Origin: Acidimicrobiales bacterium
GTDB taxonomy: Bacteria; Actinomycetota; Acidimicrobiia; Acidimicrobiales; GCA-2861595
Direction: 5' to 3'
NCBI GenBank assembly: GCA_046596195.1
Contig: JBKJNA010000233.1
Location: 638 to 64,637 of the forward strand
Length of the DNA: 64,000 nucleotides
Numbering within the stretch: position 1 is the first letter of the stretch; each line of letters opens with the position of its first letter. Position numbers and translations under genes: made by a program. A model generated the notes under the pieces. The model had not been told where the DNA came from, searched no databases, and saw only the letters and a program-made list of their open reading frames with translations. Positions 14,565-60,298 of this stretch are shown one piece after another.

Positions 14565-17063
<2,499 letters not shown>

Positions 17064-21163: not shown

Positions 21164-22237
21164 GTGCTCAGCCGGCGCACTACGGCAATGACCGAGGCAC
21201 TGGGCGCCGTCGCCCCAGGCCGACCCCTGCGAGAGGGGCTCGACCGCATCCTCCAGGCCAACATGGGCGCCCTCATCGTGGTGGGCGACGGTCCGGAGGT
21301 GCTTGCCATCTGCTCGGGCGGGTTCCTGCTGGACGCCGAGTTCAGTCCCCAGCGGCTGTCCGAGCTGGCCAAGATGGACGGCGCCATCATCCTGGCGTCC
21401 GACGCCAGCCGTATCGCCCGGGCCAACGTCCACCTGGTGCCCAACCCCAACGTGCCCACGTCGGAGACGGGCACCCGGCACCGCACGGCCGAGCGGGTGG
21501 CCAGGTCGGTCGATGTGCCGGTGATCTCGGTGTCCGAGGACATGTCGATCATCGCCGTCTACCGCCACGACAAAAAGCACCCGCTCGAGCCGGTGCCCCG
21601 CCTCGTCAACCGCGCCAACCAGGCACTCCAGACCCTGGAGCGCTACAAGACCCGCCTCGACGCCGTGAGCGGAGCCCTGTCGGCCCTCGAGGTCGAGGAC
21701 CTGGTGACGGTGCGCGATGTGGTCACCGTGCTGCAGCGGGCCGAGATGGTGGGCCGCATCGCCGAGGAGATCGACGGCTACATCGTCGAGCTCGGCACCG
21801 ACGGCCGCCTCGTCCTGCTCCAGCTCGAGGAGCTCATGGGCGGCGTGGCCGACGACCGCCGGCTGGTGATCAAGGACTACTTCCAGGACCGGCTGCGGTG
21901 GAAGCTGGAGAAAGCGCTGGAGGCGCTGTCGAGCCTGACCACCGAGGACCTACTCGACCTCAAGACGGTCGTCGGCGTGCTGCACCTGCCCGACTCGGCT
22001 ACAGAGCTGGAGGCCGGCGTGCAGGCGCGTGGCTACCGGCTGCTGTCGAAGATCCCCCGCCTGCCGGAGCAGATCATCGAGAACATCGTGGCCCGCTTCG
22101 GCGGCCTGCAGAAGGTCCTGCGGGCCAGCATCGACGATCTCGACGACGTGGACGGGGTGGGCGAGGTGCGGGCCCGCGCCATCAAGGAAGGCCTCTCTCG
22201 CCTGGCCGAGACGTCAATCCTCGACCGCTATGCCTGA
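21164..22237 (+). CDS. disA: DNA integrity scanning protein DisA (diadenylate cyclase)
   Basis: 357 aa with a DAC domain (GALIVVG...DGAIIL...GTRHRTAERV) and a C-terminal HhH. Conserved radA-disA pairing. Confidence 0.93.
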   Translation: MLSRRTTAMTEALGAVAPGRPLREGLDRILQANMGALIVVGDGPEVLAICSGGFLLDAEFSPQRLSELAKMDGAIILASDASRIARANVHLVPNPNVPTSETGTRHRTAERVARSVDVPVISVSEDMSIIAVYRHDKKHPLEPVPRLVNRANQALQTLERYKTRLDAVSGALSALEVEDLVTVRDVVTVLQRAEMVGRIAEEIDGYIVELGTDGRLVLLQLEELMGGVADDRRLVIKDYFQDRLRWKLEKALEALSSLTTEDLLDLKTVVGVLHLPDSATELEAGVQARGYRLLSKIPRLPEQIIENIVARFGGLQKVLRASIDDLDDVDGVGEVRARAIKEGLSRLAETSILDRYA

Positions 22238-23622: not shown

Positions 23623-23671
23623 ATCGGGGCCCTTGTTACAGGCCTCTGCCCGGGAGGTCGATAAGAGCGCA

Positions 23672-24787
23672 GTGTTCGTAGAAGTCGTCCGTCTCTTCAT
23701 CGTGTTGCTGGCGACGGCCGCGGGCTTTGCCATCGGCAGGGACCCGTCGGCCGTCGACGCCGGCAACGGGGCGATCCTCGGCGCCACCCTCGGCGCCTGT
23801 GTGGGCTACGTGGCGGGCGGCGTCCTCGGGCGCCTGCTCGACCACGGCCTCGGCATGGCCGAGCGCCGTTTCGAGCACACGCCGGCCCACCAGCTGCTGG
23901 CCGGCGGGGTCGGCGCCATCGTGCTGGGCGGCCTGGTCGGCGTGGTCGTGCTGCCGGCCGCCCTGGTGTTCCCGCCGCAGATCGGCTGGTCGGCGGTGGG
24001 GCTGGTGGTGTGGGTCGGGGCCTTCCTCGGCTACCGCATCGGCGCCCGCAAGAGCGACGAGCTGCTGGCCATGGCCGGCCTGTCGTCGCAGCCGCTCCTG
24101 CGCACGACCCAGTACGGCTCGCCGGAGTCGCCCGCCGTCCTGATCGACGCCACGACGGTCGCCGACGGGCGCCTGCTCGCCGTGGTGCGGGCCGGCTTCC
24201 TGCGCGACGCAGTGGTGGTGCCGCGCTTCGTCCTCGACCACCTCGAGGCCATCGCCGAGAGCGAGGACCCTGTGCGCAGCCGCCGGGGCCGGCGCGGGCT
24301 CGAGATGCTCGAGGCGCTGCGGCTCCAGCCGGAGGTGACGCTGCACGTGCTGGAGGACGAGCTGCCCGAGCACGACGACGCCCACGCCAAGCTGGTGGCC
24401 CTGGCCCGCCGCTCCAACAGCGCGCTGCTCACCCTCGACGAGACGCTCCAGCGCACGGCCGAACTGCAGGGCGTGCGGTGCCTCAGCCTGCGCCGGCTGG
24501 GGGAGGGCATGCGCCCCGTCTACCTGCCCGGCGAGGTGGCCCGCCTGCCCATCGTGCGCGAGGGCAAGGAGGCCGGGCAGGGCGTCGGCTTCCTCGACGA
24601 CGGCACCATGGTGGTCGTCGGCGGCGCCCGGGCGCTCGTGGGCCAGGAGGTGGACGTGCGTATCACCAGCAAGGTGGAGACGTCGGTTGGGCGGATGCTG
24701 TTCGCATCCCTCGATTCGGAACCGGAGGTACCGAATCGAACTGACGGTGCTGCGGACGACCGGCAAGCCGGCCGCCCTCCGCGCTGA
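23672..24787 (+). CDS. PIN/TRAM domain membrane protein (YacL-like)
   Basis: N-terminal TM helices, a PIN domain (VLIDATTVADGRL...LTLDETL) and a C-terminal TRAM (GQGVGFLDDGTMVVV...VDVRITS). GTG 23672 has a GGGAGG SD; the tracked ORF starts at 23633. Confidence 0.85.
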   Translation: MFVEVVRLFIVLLATAAGFAIGRDPSAVDAGNGAILGATLGACVGYVAGGVLGRLLDHGLGMAERRFEHTPAHQLLAGGVGAIVLGGLVGVVVLPAALVFPPQIGWSAVGLVVWVGAFLGYRIGARKSDELLAMAGLSSQPLLRTTQYGSPESPAVLIDATTVADGRLLAVVRAGFLRDAVVVPRFVLDHLEAIAESEDPVRSRRGRRGLEMLEALRLQPEVTLHVLEDELPEHDDAHAKLVALARRSNSALLTLDETLQRTAELQGVRCLSLRRLGEGMRPVYLPGEVARLPIVREGKEAGQGVGFLDDGTMVVVGGARALVGQEVDVRITSKVETSVGRMLFASLDSEPEVPNRTDGAADDRQAGRPPR

Positions 24788-24950: not shown

Positions 24951-26051
24951 GTGCCTGTGTGGACGATCGTCTTGGCAGCGGGGACCGGGTCGCGGTTCGG
25001 GGGGGCGAAGCAGTATGCGTCGCTCGGGGGGCGGCGGGTGCTCGACTGGTCGCTGGATGCCGCCCAGGCGGCGGGCGACGGGGTCGTGCTCGTGGTGCCG
25101 GCGGGCGAGGTGGGGCGGCCGGAGGCGGCTGACGCCGTGGTGGCGGGGGGCGACACCCGCTCGGGCTCGGTGCGCAACGGGCTGGGCGCGGTGCCGGACG
25201 ACGCCGACGTGGTGGTTGTCCACGACGCTGCCCGCCCGCTGGCCCGGCCTGTGCTGTTCCGGGCCACCGTCGAGGCGGTGCGCCGGGGCGCCGCCGGCGC
25301 GGTGTGTGCCGTGCCTGTCACGGACACGGTGAAACGGGTGGCGGGGTCCACTGTGGTGGCCACCCTGGACCGCTCCGAGCTGTGGGCCGTGCAGACGCCG
25401 CAGGCATTCGACGCCGGGGCGCTGCGGGCGGCCCACGCCGGCGAGGGCGAGGCGGGTGACGACGCCGCCCTGCTGGAGGCGGCCGGTGCGGAGGTCGTCG
25501 TCGTGCCCGGCGATCCCCGCAACCTCAAGCTCACCGGCCCCGACGACCTGGCCATGGCCGAGGCGCTCGCCGGTTCACCTGCGGTACGCATCGGGCAGGG
25601 CTACGACGTGCACGCCTTCAGCGACGACCCGGCCCGGCCCCTGGTGCTCGGCGGCGTGGTGTTCGAGGGTGAACGGGGCCTCAGCGGCCACAGCGACGCC
25701 GACGTGGTGGCGCATGCCGTCGCCGACGCCGTGCTCGGCGCGGCCGGGCTTGGCGACCTGGGCCGTCACTTCCCCGACACCGACCCGGCCTGGGCCGGCG
25801 CCGACAGCCTGGTGCTGCTGGCCGAGGTGGTGCGCCGGGCGTCCGACGCCGGCTGGCGCCCGGCCAACGCCGACTGCACGGTGGTGTGCGAGGGGCCCCG
25901 CCTGGCGCCCCGGCGCGACGACATGGAGGCCCGCCTGGCCGCCGTCCTGGCCGCGCCGGTCAACGTCAAGGCGGCGCGGGCGGAGGGCCTCGGCGCCCTC
26001 GGGCGGGGCGAGGGCATCGCCTGCTCGGCCGTCGTCCTGGTGGGCCGGTGA
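24951..26051 (+). CDS. ispDF: bifunctional 2-C-methyl-D-erythritol 4-phosphate cytidylyltransferase / MEcPP synthase (IspDF fusion)
   Basis: A single 366-aa ORF. The IspD part reads IVLAAGTGSRFG...NLKLTGPDDL. An in-frame linker AGSPAV follows, then the IspF part RIGQGYDVHAF...GHSDADV. Confidence 0.92.
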   Translation: MPVWTIVLAAGTGSRFGGAKQYASLGGRRVLDWSLDAAQAAGDGVVLVVPAGEVGRPEAADAVVAGGDTRSGSVRNGLGAVPDDADVVVVHDAARPLARPVLFRATVEAVRRGAAGAVCAVPVTDTVKRVAGSTVVATLDRSELWAVQTPQAFDAGALRAAHAGEGEAGDDAALLEAAGAEVVVVPGDPRNLKLTGPDDLAMAEALAGSPAVRIGQGYDVHAFSDDPARPLVLGGVVFEGERGLSGHSDADVVAHAVADAVLGAAGLGDLGRHFPDTDPAWAGADSLVLLAEVVRRASDAGWRPANADCTVVCEGPRLAPRRDDMEARLAAVLAAPVNVKAARAEGLGALGRGEGIACSAVVLVGR

Positions 26052-26941
26052 CACCGCCGCGAGGCGGAGGTCCCAAACCAGCGGGCGGTGGTGGCGGAAG
26101 CCAGCCGCCCCGTGGCCGGCGCCCGTCCGCCGCCGGCCCCGCCAGGCGGGGCTCGCCGCCGGGTGCACCGTCGCGCCGCGGCGGTCGGTCGGCGCTGCAG
26201 GGGATCGGCGGTGAGCAGGTCGAGGGCCGCCACGCCGTGCGCGAGCTGCTGGCCGCCGGCCGCCGGCGGGTGCGCGAGGTGCTGGTGGCCGACGGCATGG
26301 ACCCGTCCGCCCTCGTCAACGAGATCCTCGACCTGGCCGCCGCCGCCCGCGTGCCGGTGCGCCGGGTCACCCGCGCCCGGCTCGACGCAGCGGCAGCCAC
26401 CGATGCGCCCCAGGGCGTGGTGGCCAGGGCCGAGGCCCTCACGGAGGCGGATCTCGACGACCTGGTCCGCACCGTGGGCGGGCGAACGCCGTTCCTCCTC
26501 GCCCTCGACGGCGTCACCGACCCCCACAACCTGGGCGCCCTGCTGCGCACCGCAGAGTGCGCCGGAGCGACGGGCGCGGTGTTGCCGCGCCACCGGGCCG
26601 TCCACATCACACCCACCGTCGCCAAGACGGCGGCAGGCGCCATCGAGCACCTGCCCCTCGCCGTCGTCCCCGGGCTGCCGGCGGCCCTCAACCAGCTGCG
26701 CAAGGCGGGGGTGTGGACGGTCGGGCTCGACCAGGACGCCCGCCAGAGTGTCTACGACCTGGAGCTGGGCGCCGAGCCCGTGGCCCTGGTCCTGGGCGCC
26801 GAGGGGAGCGGCCTGTCGCGACTCGTCCTCCAACGGTGCGACGTGGCCGTGCACATCCCCCAGAGGGGGTCGCTGCCGTCGCTGAACGTGGCCGCCGCCG
26901 GGGCGGTGGCCTGTTTCGAACTCGCTCGCCGGCGGGCCTAG
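26048..26941 (+). CDS. TrmH/SpoU-family 23S rRNA 2'-O-methyltransferase (RlmB/YacO-like)
   Basis: GTG 26048 overlaps the ispDF stop (GTGA). Gly/Arg-rich head, then EGRHAVRELL..., DGVTDPHNLGALLRTA and SLNVAAAGAV SpoU motifs. Confidence 0.85.
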   Translation: MTPPRGGGPKPAGGGGGSQPPRGRRPSAAGPARRGSPPGAPSRRGGRSALQGIGGEQVEGRHAVRELLAAGRRRVREVLVADGMDPSALVNEILDLAAAARVPVRRVTRARLDAAAATDAPQGVVARAEALTEADLDDLVRTVGGRTPFLLALDGVTDPHNLGALLRTAECAGATGAVLPRHRAVHITPTVAKTAAGAIEHLPLAVVPGLPAALNQLRKAGVWTVGLDQDARQSVYDLELGAEPVALVLGAEGSGLSRLVLQRCDVAVHIPQRGSLPSLNVAAAGAVACFELARRRA

Positions 26942-27024
26942 CGCCCGGCGGCGGGCCGGCGACCAATTTGGGCGGCGGGCCCCGATTTCGGCGCGCCCAC
27001 ACACGCCTATCGCCATTCTGACCA

Positions 27025-27060
27025 TTGACACTCGGGGTGCCCCTAGTTACAACTAACTAG
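27025..27060 (+). promoter_or_regulatory. candidate promoter (TTGACA-17-TACAAC) overlapped by AT-rich inverted repeat CTAGTTA-caac-TAACTAG
   Basis: The only AT-rich patch in the 190-bp region upstream of the sigma gene. The -10 match is weak. Confidence 0.3.
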
Positions 27061-27132
27061 TTCTTCCCCGCAGGGCCGCTGCTCAAACCGCACGTTTCGG
27101 TCTTCGTCACACCACCGCAGGAGCTCACGCCA

Positions 27133-27789
27133 ATGCCGGTCCGCTGCGACATCCCCTCCGCCGACGTCTCCGACGCCGACCTCGTCGAGCGCTATCACGC
27201 CGGCGACACGGACGCCCTGCTGGTGCTGCTCGAGCGCTACCGGCGCTTCGCCGCCGTTCGGGCCCGCACGTATTTCCTGGCCGGTGGCGACTCCGACGAC
27301 ATCGAGCAGGAAGGGATGATCGGTCTCTTCAAGGCGGCACGCGACTTCCGGGGCGACCGTGAGTCGTCGTTCCGGGCCTTCGCCGAGCTGTGCATCACCC
27401 GCCAGGTCATCAGCGCCGTGAAGTCGGCCACCCGGCACAAGCACCGCCCGCTCAACCAGTACGTGTCGCTCTCGGGCGTGCGGGGCGGCGACGACGCCTC
27501 CGAGCGCTCGGTCGAGGACCTGCTCGATCCCCACGCCGTCGCCGACCCGGCCGACGCGGTGGTATCCAACGAGCGCATGGCAGCCATGAAGCGCTCGATC
27601 GGTGAGACCCTCTCCGGGCTCGAGGTCGAGGTGCTGCGCCTCTATGTGGAGGGCAAGTCCTACCAGGAGATCAGCGCCCAGCTCGGCCGGCACGTGAAGT
27701 CGATCGACAACGCCCTCCAGCGCATCAAGCGCAAGCTCGAGGGCCACCTGAACGAGGGCGCCGCCACCGAGGACCTGGTCCTCGTCTAA
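27133..27789 (+). CDS. sigH: RNA polymerase sigma factor, Bacillus SigH-type
   Basis: 218 aa. DIEQEGMIGLFKAARDF, SFRAFAELCITRQVISAVKSATRHKHRPLNQY and SYQEISAQLGRHVKSIDNALQRIKRKLE match B. subtilis SigH as I remember it. It follows the yacO-like gene, as in Bacillus. Confidence 0.85.
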   Translation: MPVRCDIPSADVSDADLVERYHAGDTDALLVLLERYRRFAAVRARTYFLAGGDSDDIEQEGMIGLFKAARDFRGDRESSFRAFAELCITRQVISAVKSATRHKHRPLNQYVSLSGVRGGDDASERSVEDLLDPHAVADPADAVVSNERMAAMKRSIGETLSGLEVEVLRLYVEGKSYQEISAQLGRHVKSIDNALQRIKRKLEGHLNEGAATEDLVLV

Positions 27790-27865
27790 CGGTAGCGACC
27801 GGCGGACCTGAGGTCCGGCCGGCCGCCTGGCGGCTGGGCTGAGTGCCGATCGACCCGCACGGAAG

Positions 27866-27939
27866 AGCCCGAGGCCGGATTCGAACCGGCGACCTGACGC
27901 TTACAAGGCGCCTGCTCTGGCCAACTGAGCTACTCGGGC
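27866..27939 (-). tRNA. tRNA-Thr (anticodon UGU)
   Basis: The reverse complement folds as GCCCGAG-UA-GCUC-AGUUGGCCA-GAGC-A-GGCGC-CUUGUAA-GCGUC-AGGUC-GCCGG-UUCGAAU-CCGGC-CUCGGGC-U (74 nt, no encoded CCA). Confidence 0.93.
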
Positions 27940-45180: not shown

Positions 45181-45215
45181 TCCCGAGTAAATAACCACCG
45201 GATTCCGACGGCTAT

Positions 45216-45225
<10 letters not shown>
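45181..45225. terminator. AT-rich 13-bp perfect inverted repeat with 19-nt loop between convergent hemQ and livF
   Basis: TCCCGAGTAAATA-accaccggattccgacggc-TATTTACTCGGGA. The right arm covers the last livF codons and its stop. Confidence 0.6.
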
Positions 45226-58720: not shown

Positions 58721-60298
58721 GTGCCCGACTCCGGCCCGCCCACCGGGGCGGACGGCGTGCTGCGGCCCGCCCTCGACCTCGCCTTCGATGTCGCACGGAT
58801 CGGCGCCCGGTCGGTCCCGCCCATCGAGGCGCCGCGGGCGGTGCGGCCCTTCCTCCAGTTCACCGGGCGACTGCCGGACGGCGCGTTGGGTGCCCTACGG
58901 CGCGGGCTCGACGAGGACGAGGGCTTCCGGGCGCGGGTGGCCGGACTGGCGGACGAGGACGAGCTGGGGCGGGCCGGCTGGCTGCTCGTCGTGCGCCCCG
59001 AGGGCTGGGACGCGGAGCTGGCGGGGATCCTGGACCAGGCCGGCGCCAAGGCCCGGGCCGAGCAGGAGGAGAAGGAGGAGCGCAGCGCCCGCCGGCGCCT
59101 GGCCCACGCCGAGCAGGCCACCGAGCGGGCGCAGGCGGCGGCGGCCCGGGCGAGGGCCGAGCTGGCGGCGGCCGCCACCGAGCTGGCGGCCGAGCGCCGT
59201 TCCCGGCGGGCGGCCCAGGACGACGTCGCCCGGCTGACCCGCAAGGTCGATTCGCTGGAGGGCGAGCGGGACAGCGCCCGCCGGCGGGCGGCCGAGTCGG
59301 CGGCCGAGGTGGCGCACCTGGCGGCCGGGCTCGATGCGGCGCAGGGCGAGGCGGCCCGGCTGGGCTCGGCCCTGGAGGCAGCCGAGGCCGATGCCGCGGC
59401 GCGGGCGCTCAGGGAGCGGGCCGAACAGCTGCGGGCCGGGGCGGGCGGGAGTGACGCCGGCACTGTGCCGGCGAAGGGGCGTCCCGGTGACGGGCGCCGG
59501 CCGGTGGGAAGGGGTGGGTCGGCCGGGCCCGCAACGGGCGACTCCGGACGCGCTGGCGTGGCGGGCACGTCGGCGTCGAGCATCAGCGGCGGGGCGGGCG
59601 CCGGCGCGTCAGCGTCGAGCAGCGGCGGTCGGGCCGGGACGCCGGCGTCGAGCAGCGGCCGCCGGGCCGGGGACGGTCCCGATCTCCGGCTCGTGGCCGA
59701 TGCCGTCGCAGCCGCCGCTGCCGCTGCATCCAACCTCGGCAGGGCCCTCGCCGACGCATCGTCCGCCCTGGCCCCAGCGGCTGTGCCCACCGCCACGTCG
59801 CCTCCGTCCCGGACTCCTCGCGGCGGCCCCGCCGCCGCACGCCGCCGACCCGCAGCACTGCCGCCTGCGGTATTCGACGACACGACCGAGGCGGCCGCCC
59901 ACCTCGTCCGTGTCCCGGGGGCGCTGGTGCTGGTCGACGGTTACAACGCAGCGAAGGCGCTGTGGCCGGACGAGGCGCCCCTCGAGCTCCGCGAGCGCCT
60001 CGTCGACGCACTGAGCGAGCTGGTCGCCCGCACCGGGGCCGTCATCCACGTCGTCTACGACGGGGCCGACCTCGGAATGCCACCGTCGCGACCGGCCACG
60101 ACGCGCGGGGTGCGGGTCAGTTTCTCGCCGGCCGATGTGGAGGCGGACGACGTCATCCTCGACCTCGTCGACGCCGAGCCACCGGCTCGGGCTGTCGTGG
60201 TGGCGTCGAGCGACCACCGCGTGCGCGACGGCGCCCGCCGGCGTGGCGCCAACGTCATCACGAGCGCGCAGCTTGCCGCCGTCCTCGGGCGGTCCTGA
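58721..60298 (+). CDS. Ala/Arg-rich coiled-coil protein with C-terminal YacP-like NYN (PIN-like) domain
   Basis: The C-terminus LVLVDGYNAAK...VIHVVYDG...EADDVILDLV...VVASSDHRV parallels B. subtilis YacP/Rae1 as I remember it. The central part is Ala/Arg/Glu heptad-like and low complexity. GTG 58721. Confidence 0.75.
   Translation: MPDSGPPTGADGVLRPALDLAFDVARIGARSVPPIEAPRAVRPFLQFTGRLPDGALGALRRGLDEDEGFRARVAGLADEDELGRAGWLLVVRPEGWDAELAGILDQAGAKARAEQEEKEERSARRRLAHAEQATERAQAAAARARAELAAAATELAAERRSRRAAQDDVARLTRKVDSLEGERDSARRRAAESAAEVAHLAAGLDAAQGEAARLGSALEAAEADAAARALRERAEQLRAGAGGSDAGTVPAKGRPGDGRRPVGRGGSAGPATGDSGRAGVAGTSASSISGGAGAGASASSSGGRAGTPASSSGRRAGDGPDLRLVADAVAAAAAAASNLGRALADASSALAPAAVPTATSPPSRTPRGGPAAARRRPAALPPAVFDDTTEAAAHLVRVPGALVLVDGYNAAKALWPDEAPLELRERLVDALSELVARTGAVIHVVYDGADLGMPPSRPATTRGVRVSFSPADVEADDVILDLVDAEPPARAVVVASSDHRVRDGARRRGANVITSAQLAAVLGRS

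Follow-up and report, generated by a model that had tools for sequence, protein, structure and literature searches.

The 64,000-nucleotide stretch of Acidimicrobiales DNA analysed here (the window) carries a gene for a sigma factor of the SigH (Spo0H) family, referred to below as sigH, directly behind the 23S rRNA methyltransferase gene rlmB. The window belongs to a metagenome-assembled genome of 3.74 Mb in 244 contigs, 95% complete and with a G+C content of about 72%. The gene and the two conserved regions of its product lie as follows.

27133..27789, plus strand: sigH, 218-aa SigH (Spo0H)-family sigma factor, ATG start
27226-27435, plus strand: sigH region 2 (residues 32-101), Pfam Sigma70_r2
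27619-27738, plus strand: sigH region 4 (residues 163-202), Pfam r4_2

A SigH-family sigma factor behind rlmB

The 218-aa protein scored above the cut-offs of two NCBIfam equivalog models for SigH, NF006148 (256.2 bits, cut-off 208) and NF006145 (241.5 bits, cut-off 212), whereas the top model from outside the SigH family, the generic sigma70-ECF model (ECF, extracytoplasmic function), reached 73.2 bits and the ECF models ranged from 25 to 73 bits. Region 3 was not found in a Pfam domain search. In a pairwise BLASTP comparison, 110 of 202 positions (54%) were identical to SigH of Lysinibacillus fusiformis, and a one-genome-per-species homologue scan, which returned 470 encoding loci, gave 50-57% identity to the SigH proteins of Lysinibacillus, Solibacillus, Planomicrobium, Paenisporosarcina, Thermosyntropha, and Moorella. 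An earlier note on this DNA had recognized a SigH relative from two sequence blocks and had set beforehand about 30% identity as the level below which the assignment should fall; the measured values lie well above it. Both blocks are present (FRAFAELCITRQ.I.A.K.ATR.KH.PLN.YVSL and SY.EIS..L.RHVKSIDNALQR.KRKLE) and are essentially identical in Lysinibacillus SigH. The promoter-reading segments of regions 2.4 and 4.2 within them (FRAFAELCITRQ and RHVKSIDNALQR.KRKLE) are likewise common to Lysinibacillus SigH and are invariant in 26 homologues; across these 81 residues are invariant, which speaks against a decaying relic.

An AlphaFold model of the protein (mean predicted local distance difference test score, pLDDT, of 72) comprises two helical domains; residues 115-137 between them are of low confidence and were read as a flexible, disordered linker. 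In a fold search the top match was 9a4r_A, a 218-residue chain with 47% identity from an integrative model, which we read as B. subtilis SigH (RPSH) with RpoB. The best crystal structure by sequence was that of Fusobacterium nucleatum sigma-H (3mzy; E 1.3e-22, residues 51-208). The gene is the only SigH-like gene in its genome, and no second locus matches even at E 1e-3. Its closest homologues, 97-70% identical, come from metagenome bins of Acidimicrobiales and Acidimicrobiia.

The neighborhood of sigH contains the following features.

14565-17063, strand not stated: clpC, the start of the gene order upstream of the sigma gene
21164-22237, strand not stated: disA, after radA
23633-24787, strand not stated: yacL-like membrane PIN/TRAM open reading frame (ORF)
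24951-26051, strand not stated: ispD-ispF fusion, one 366-aa ORF
26048..26941, plus strand: rlmB, yacO-type 23S rRNA 2'-O-methyltransferase, TIGR00186, Pfam SpoU_methylase and SpoU_sub_bind
27025..27053, plus strand: putative housekeeping-type promoter, TTGACA at 27025-27030, 17-nt spacer, TACAAC at 27048-27053
27043..27060, no strand: palindrome CTAGTTA-CAAC-TAACTAG (CTAGTTACAACTAACTAG), overlapping the -10 element, putative operator
27119..27123, plus strand: Shine-Dalgarno sequence AGGAG, 9 nt before the ATG
27865..27939, minus strand: tRNA-Thr (TGT) downstream of sigH, predicted by ARAGORN, Rfam tRNA 69 bits
27976..28317, plus strand: DUF3263 gene, Pfam PF11662, 94 bits

The gene order runs clpC, radA, disA, carD, the PIN/TRAM-like ORF, ispD-ispF, and rlmB, and then the sigma gene. 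The methyltransferase gene immediately upstream was confirmed by its family model (TIGR00186, 194 bits, cut-off 160), and its start overlaps the stop of ispDF, both as previously proposed. The suggestion that the stretch follows the Bacillus order from clpC to sigH holds in part: the order is present, but it is interrupted by a minus-strand subtilase-like gene, a lipoprotein-like ORF, and a dienelactone hydrolase gene, it differs further in the presence of carD, and both cysS (between ispF and rlmB) and yacP are absent from the locus. Similarly, the yacL assignment stands as a sequence reading of a PIN/TRAM-like membrane ORF, but family models do not back it, as Pfam gave no hit and NCBIfam a weak one. 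A YacP-type NYN domain (PF05991, 60 bits) does occur at 59927-60286 on the plus strand, about 32 kb downstream of sigH and inside a long open frame; Bacillus and some actinobacteria, unlike the window, have yacP between rlmB and sigH. The genes rpmG-secE-nusG do not lie downstream of sigH in the window. The DUF3263 gene, which stands behind sigH in about 35 actinobacterial loci, probably lies outside the sigH system.

Distribution, synteny, and phylogeny

SigH is widespread but patchy in the Actinomycetota. Among 401 evenly sampled species genomes of the phylum, 152 (about 38%) had a SigH-model match above cut-off, as did 39 of the 151 genomes of the window's order, and in the phylum as in the order presence was mostly all-or-none per family. 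Several large actinobacterial families had none (0/32, 0/29, 0/23, 0/17, and 0/13). Control genomes of Bacillus subtilis and Thermotoga maritima were positive for the SigH model, and Corynebacterium glutamicum gave no SigH match at E 1e-20. By exact-sequence look-up, carriers include Conexibacter sp. SYSU D00693 (WP_205697358.1) and Nitriliruptor alkaliphilus (WP_245617670.1), together with members of the Gaiellaceae and other Thermoleophilia, the Coriobacteriia/Anaerosomatales, and the Acidimicrobiales; Candidatus Aquicultor and bins labeled Frankiales or Mycobacteriales also occur among the carriers, the bin taxonomy being a label only. The "deep-branching lineage" of the earlier note therefore needs widening: deep-branching carriers exist, but they belong to many actinobacterial classes, and the distribution is patchy even within the window's order.

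The proteins of the named carriers are mostly annotated SigH or sigma-H, and NCBI and JGI label close homologues "RNA polymerase sporulation sigma factor SigH", so that the identification is already present in public annotation. Thus, SigH as a regulator of Firmicutes is a fair description of the experiments but not of the databases, in which actinobacterial proteins already bear the name. Our full-text literature searches found no paper on a Bacillus-type SigH in Actinomycetota; the SigH of an actinobacterial review is the Streptomyces stress sigma factor.

The linkage to rlmB is conserved across both phyla. In a first set of 110 loci, about 100 have the sigma gene behind rlmB or rlmB-yacP. 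A second set, 20 loci from as many actinobacterial families, adds 15 with this linkage (its exceptions include second copies), for a total of about 115 of 130. Actinobacterial loci follow the pattern carD-ispD-ispF-(cysS)-rlmB-(yacP)-sigH, often with DUF3263 next, and Bacillota loci the pattern cysS-mrnC-rlmB-(yacP)-sigH, followed in Bacilli by rpmG-secE-nusG (in Lysinibacillus fusiformis, cysS-mrnC-rlmB-yacP-sigH-rpmG-secE-nusG-rplK). Four SigH-less genomes of the window's order retain ispDF-rlmB, with no sigma gene within 1.5 kb. Three of these four inspected relatives have the ispDF-rlmB run without cysS, and in the fourth a gap may separate ispF from rlmB. In one of the SigH-less genomes (L137, G062:C1) a tRNA-Thr(TGT) gene at 2320-2392, about 76 nt behind rlmB, occupies the slot that in the window holds sigH followed by tRNA-Thr, which fits a clean loss of the sigma gene. 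A further genome, G521, was considered as a SigH-less member of the window's family and dropped, since it also lacks an rlmB match and the whole region may be unassembled.

SigH-like genes also occur away from rlmB in some actinobacteria. Two of these (L116 in G001 and L126 in G215) are second copies, and two others (L121 in G158 and L124 in G031) are non-syntenic and very divergent, with altered region 4 helices; the placement of the latter two in the tree described below could reflect later transfer or fast evolution.

We computed a maximum-likelihood tree of 101 non-redundant sequences with a quick search. Of these, 72 actinobacterial sequences and the window protein formed one group with a Shimodaira-Hasegawa-like approximate likelihood-ratio (SH-aLRT) support of 81, and the 24 Bacillota sequences formed one starred group (96*), so that most actinobacterial copies lie on one side of a single branch and the Bacillota copies on the other. 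The window protein lies inside a 23-sequence clade mostly labeled Acidimicrobiia or Acidimicrobiales (97*). L121 and L124 attach to the Bacillota through a very long branch, and a single low-GC sequence floats. Family models and tree alike place the protein with SigH and not with the ECF or group-3 sigma factors of actinobacteria.

Overall, we consider it likely that the gene, which encodes a SigH (Spo0H)-family alternative sigma factor of RNA polymerase, is an orthologue of Bacillus SigH and that its position behind rlmB was inherited from an ancestor of Actinomycetota and Bacillota. Because of the synteny, the near-clean split between the phyla, and the SigH-less relatives that keep ispDF-rlmB, taken together, the evidence favors an old arrangement common to both phyla followed by many losses. 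The common ancestor would have had sigH behind rlmB and passed this position on; many non-model actinobacterial lineages would have retained the gene, whereas others, including most well-studied families and most families of the window's order, would have lost it repeatedly. Of the two options left by the earlier note, an ancestral arrangement that was kept agrees with the conserved linkage and the tree, and an uncharacterised regulon holds alongside it without conflict.

The sigH promoter and the expected regulon

A 190-bp spacer separates sigH from the gene upstream and contains an apparently strong promoter of the housekeeping type, its -10 element overlain by a putative operator. Of 25 Acidimicrobiia relatives, 21 have a perfect TTGACA followed by N17-18 and TAnnnn (mostly TAnAAn), located 52-130 nt upstream of the start codon. 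In these relatives a (G)ACTAGT(C) core often lies directly behind the -10 element, and in the window it forms part of the palindrome CTAGTTACAACTAACTAG. The relatives' sigH leaders also conserve CGCAGGAGC and have CGTCACA and a ribosome-binding site in common. For ten sigH leaders RNAalifold gave no consensus pairs, and their single folds differ; an Rfam search returned the tRNA only and no leader RNA family. Within the clade, sigH would thus be transcribed from a conserved, near-consensus housekeeping-type promoter, and the palindrome across the -10 element, which resembles an operator, would point to a repressor, and not to autoregulation, as the means of control. Bacillus sigH has a sigma-A-dependent promoter under repressor control, which the control of the window's gene would parallel.

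Since the DNA-reading helices in regions 2.4 and 4.2 hardly differ from their counterparts in Bacillota SigH, AGGA/GAAT specificity is expected: the holoenzyme would read promoters with AGGA at -35 and GAAT at -10, and it would turn on a small regulon during a growth transition. On the strength of the matching recognition helices, we scanned the genome for AGGA-N16-19-GAAT.

Some observations count against an inherited SigH with this specificity: the scan gave a weak and mixed signal, and one family model and features of the tree add to this. Genome-wide there were 69 matches, no more than for decoys, and in non-coding DNA the motif ranked sixth of 72 permuted motifs. A modest peak appeared at N18 (14 non-coding matches, about six at other spacings), but its members are heterogeneous: matches precede unrelated genes (for a PhnD-like protein, a relaxase, an excisionase, and a PIG-L deacetylase), two come from paralogous insertion sequence (IS) ends, and several are ribosome-binding sites or fall in mobile elements. 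The genome encodes comEA-comEC, dprA, and two PilB-type ATPases, and SigH-type promoters upstream of com and pil genes, for which the earlier note had proposed a search, did not appear: no AGGA-N16-19-GAAT, even with one mismatch allowed in AGGA, was found in non-coding DNA around comEA-comEC, dprA, and the two PilB-type pilus loci. The protein scored 245.5 bits with TIGR02859, the model for SigH of endospore formers, below its cut-off of 294.8. Finally, the tree is rooted on a partial Fusobacterium sequence with a branch length of 7, which makes the root unreliable, and support for the actinobacterial group is only moderate, as obtained from a quick tree search; these two features leave room for one very old block transfer.

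Related searches gave a similar picture. In about 95 actinobacterial sigH loci the AGGA/GAAT motif kept to no fixed position, and an unbiased, spacing-specific search for 4-mer pairs in non-coding DNA recovered dispersed repeats but no promoters. The two IS-end regions (G000:C87 at about 2190 and C157 at about 9135, both on the minus strand) lie beside divergent transposase-like starts, and each carries AGGAA-N18-CGAAT, which may have arisen by chance or may form an outward-facing promoter of the IS end.

Two palindromic repeats were also noted. A dispersed one of about 45 nt, (TTTC)GAGTAAATAACCACCGGAATCCGGTGGTTATTTACTC(GAAA) with the core CCGGAATCCGG, has about 29 non-coding copies in the genome, one at 45185-45221 of the window and 28 others (for example, G000:C3 at about 779 and C5 at about 24525 and about 39255), and looks like a hairpin element of the repetitive extragenic palindromic (REP) or miniature inverted-repeat transposable element (MITE) type. 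The other repeat, ATTCTGTGGAGTCCTACGTCCGGTATCCGGACGTAGGACTCCACAGAAT, is about 50 nt long and is present at about seven loci (G000:C5 at about 103.3 kb, C18, C25, C127, C173, C189, and C197); it could form a hairpin of the terminator type or serve as a site for a regulator, and its C5 copy lies in the spacer upstream of comEA-comEC.

Alternative explanations and comparison with known systems

The alternative to inheritance that deserves most attention is that the rlmB-(yacP)-sigH block moved once, very early, between the stems of Bacillota and Actinomycetota, in either direction. The root of the tree is not established, SigH-like proteins occur in Thermotoga and Fusobacterium too, so that the history of the family is wider than these two phyla, and the grouping of the non-syntenic L121 and L124 with Bacillota on a long branch shows that transfers of the family may happen. 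However, the sigma gene ends a longer cluster, carD-ispD-ispF-(cysS)-rlmB, that SigH-less members of the order have retained, and no actinobacterial subclade is nested among the syntenic Bacillota sequences, so we consider such a transfer unlikely. It is far less probable still that automated pipelines have mislabeled the protein, and that it belongs to the ordinary ECF or group-3 sigma factors of actinobacteria and does no more than resemble SigH. The ECF-like layout of two domains, the weak matches to ECF models, and the shortfall with TIGR02859 could be read in this way, but the gap between the SigH and generic ECF scores, the level of identity to Bacillota SigH, which extends over the full length, the conserved synteny, and the lack of any other matching locus in the genome speak against it. 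Contamination by, or mis-binning of, a Firmicute fragment is the least credible explanation, and we regard its probability as negligible: G+C is uniformly high along the window (0.67-0.78) and stands at 0.73 in the 2-kb bin around the sigma gene, the contig is at least 64.6 kb long with the gene placed between carD, ispDF, and rlmB on one side and DUF3263 on the other, and both other genomes of the window's genus that were searched carry the gene.

Concerning function, we found no match to Spo0A (Spo0A_C) or SpoVG in this 95%-complete genome, and the label "sporulation" is thus unfit here. A specific role as master regulator of DNA uptake (competence) would suit a genome that is non-sporulating by gene content and that encodes the com, dprA, and pilB-type genes listed above, and SigH is a reported competence regulator in the non-sporulating Staphylococcus aureus and Lactobacillus sakei. 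Nevertheless, the AGGA-N16-19-GAAT sites that such a role predicts are missing from the non-coding DNA around these loci, and the same com and pil genes are present in Corynebacterium glutamicum, the SigH-negative control; we regard this role as doubtful. A broader proposal, to which we give somewhat more credence but which remains tentative, is that sigma-H is older than endospores and that deep-branching actinobacteria still run an ancestral growth-transition regulon, perhaps with genes of mobile elements or DNA exchange among its members.

SigH is taught as a sporulation and competence factor of Firmicutes. The presence of an orthologue in the same chromosomal slot in about 38% of the sampled actinobacterial species genomes argues that SigH is older than endospores and older than the divergence of the two Gram-positive phyla, so that the database name "sporulation sigma factor" is misleading for actinobacteria. 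A further implication is a regulator, as yet unstudied, in lineages that abound in soil and gut (among them Acidimicrobiia, Thermoleophilia, and Coriobacteriia). If an ancestral program does persist, its repeated loss, including in model actinomycetes, would mean that the phylum rewired its stationary-phase control. In practical terms the finding is of modest value, given that the annotation pre-exists and the regulon was not revealed here; the interest lies in that unstudied regulon, the protein itself being an automatically annotated member of a known family.

Among known systems, some bear the name SigH only by coincidence, which invites confusion within the Actinomycetota, as the "SigH" of Mycobacterium is an unrelated ECF sigma factor and that of Streptomyces is a stress sigma factor. 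ECF (group 4) sigma factors also consist of regions 2 and 4 only, are of similar size, and give weak sequence and fold matches in the form of RpoE-type proteins, but they are another family, and the window's gene has no adjacent anti-sigma gene, being followed by a tRNA gene and DUF3263. F. nucleatum sigma-H (3mzy) is the best relative of solved structure, although it is far more distant than Bacillota SigH and sits on a very long branch in the tree; the entry stems from structural genomics, and we know of no functional study of it. A further parallel is SigH of S. aureus and L. sakei, likewise a SigH-family sigma factor in bacteria without endospores, and the window's genome has com and pilus genes that such a factor could control, but with no SigH-type promoter found at them here.

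The nearest counterpart is B. subtilis SigH (Spo0H, sigma-30), the transition-state and early-sporulation sigma factor. The two differ in their setting, since the window's host is an Acidimicrobiales bacterium of 72% G+C in which Spo0A and SpoVG were not found, its locus has neither yacP nor a downstream rpmG-secE-nusG, and its protein falls short of the endospore-former model. They agree in the protein and its place: B. subtilis SigH also has 218 aa, two domains, and a position behind rlmB, with 47% identity in the fold alignment (9a4r_A, as read here; 54% for Lysinibacillus SigH) and nearly identical helices in regions 2.4 and 4.2. The B. subtilis sigH promoter is of the housekeeping type, and judging by its conservation among relatives, that of the window's gene is probably of the same kind.

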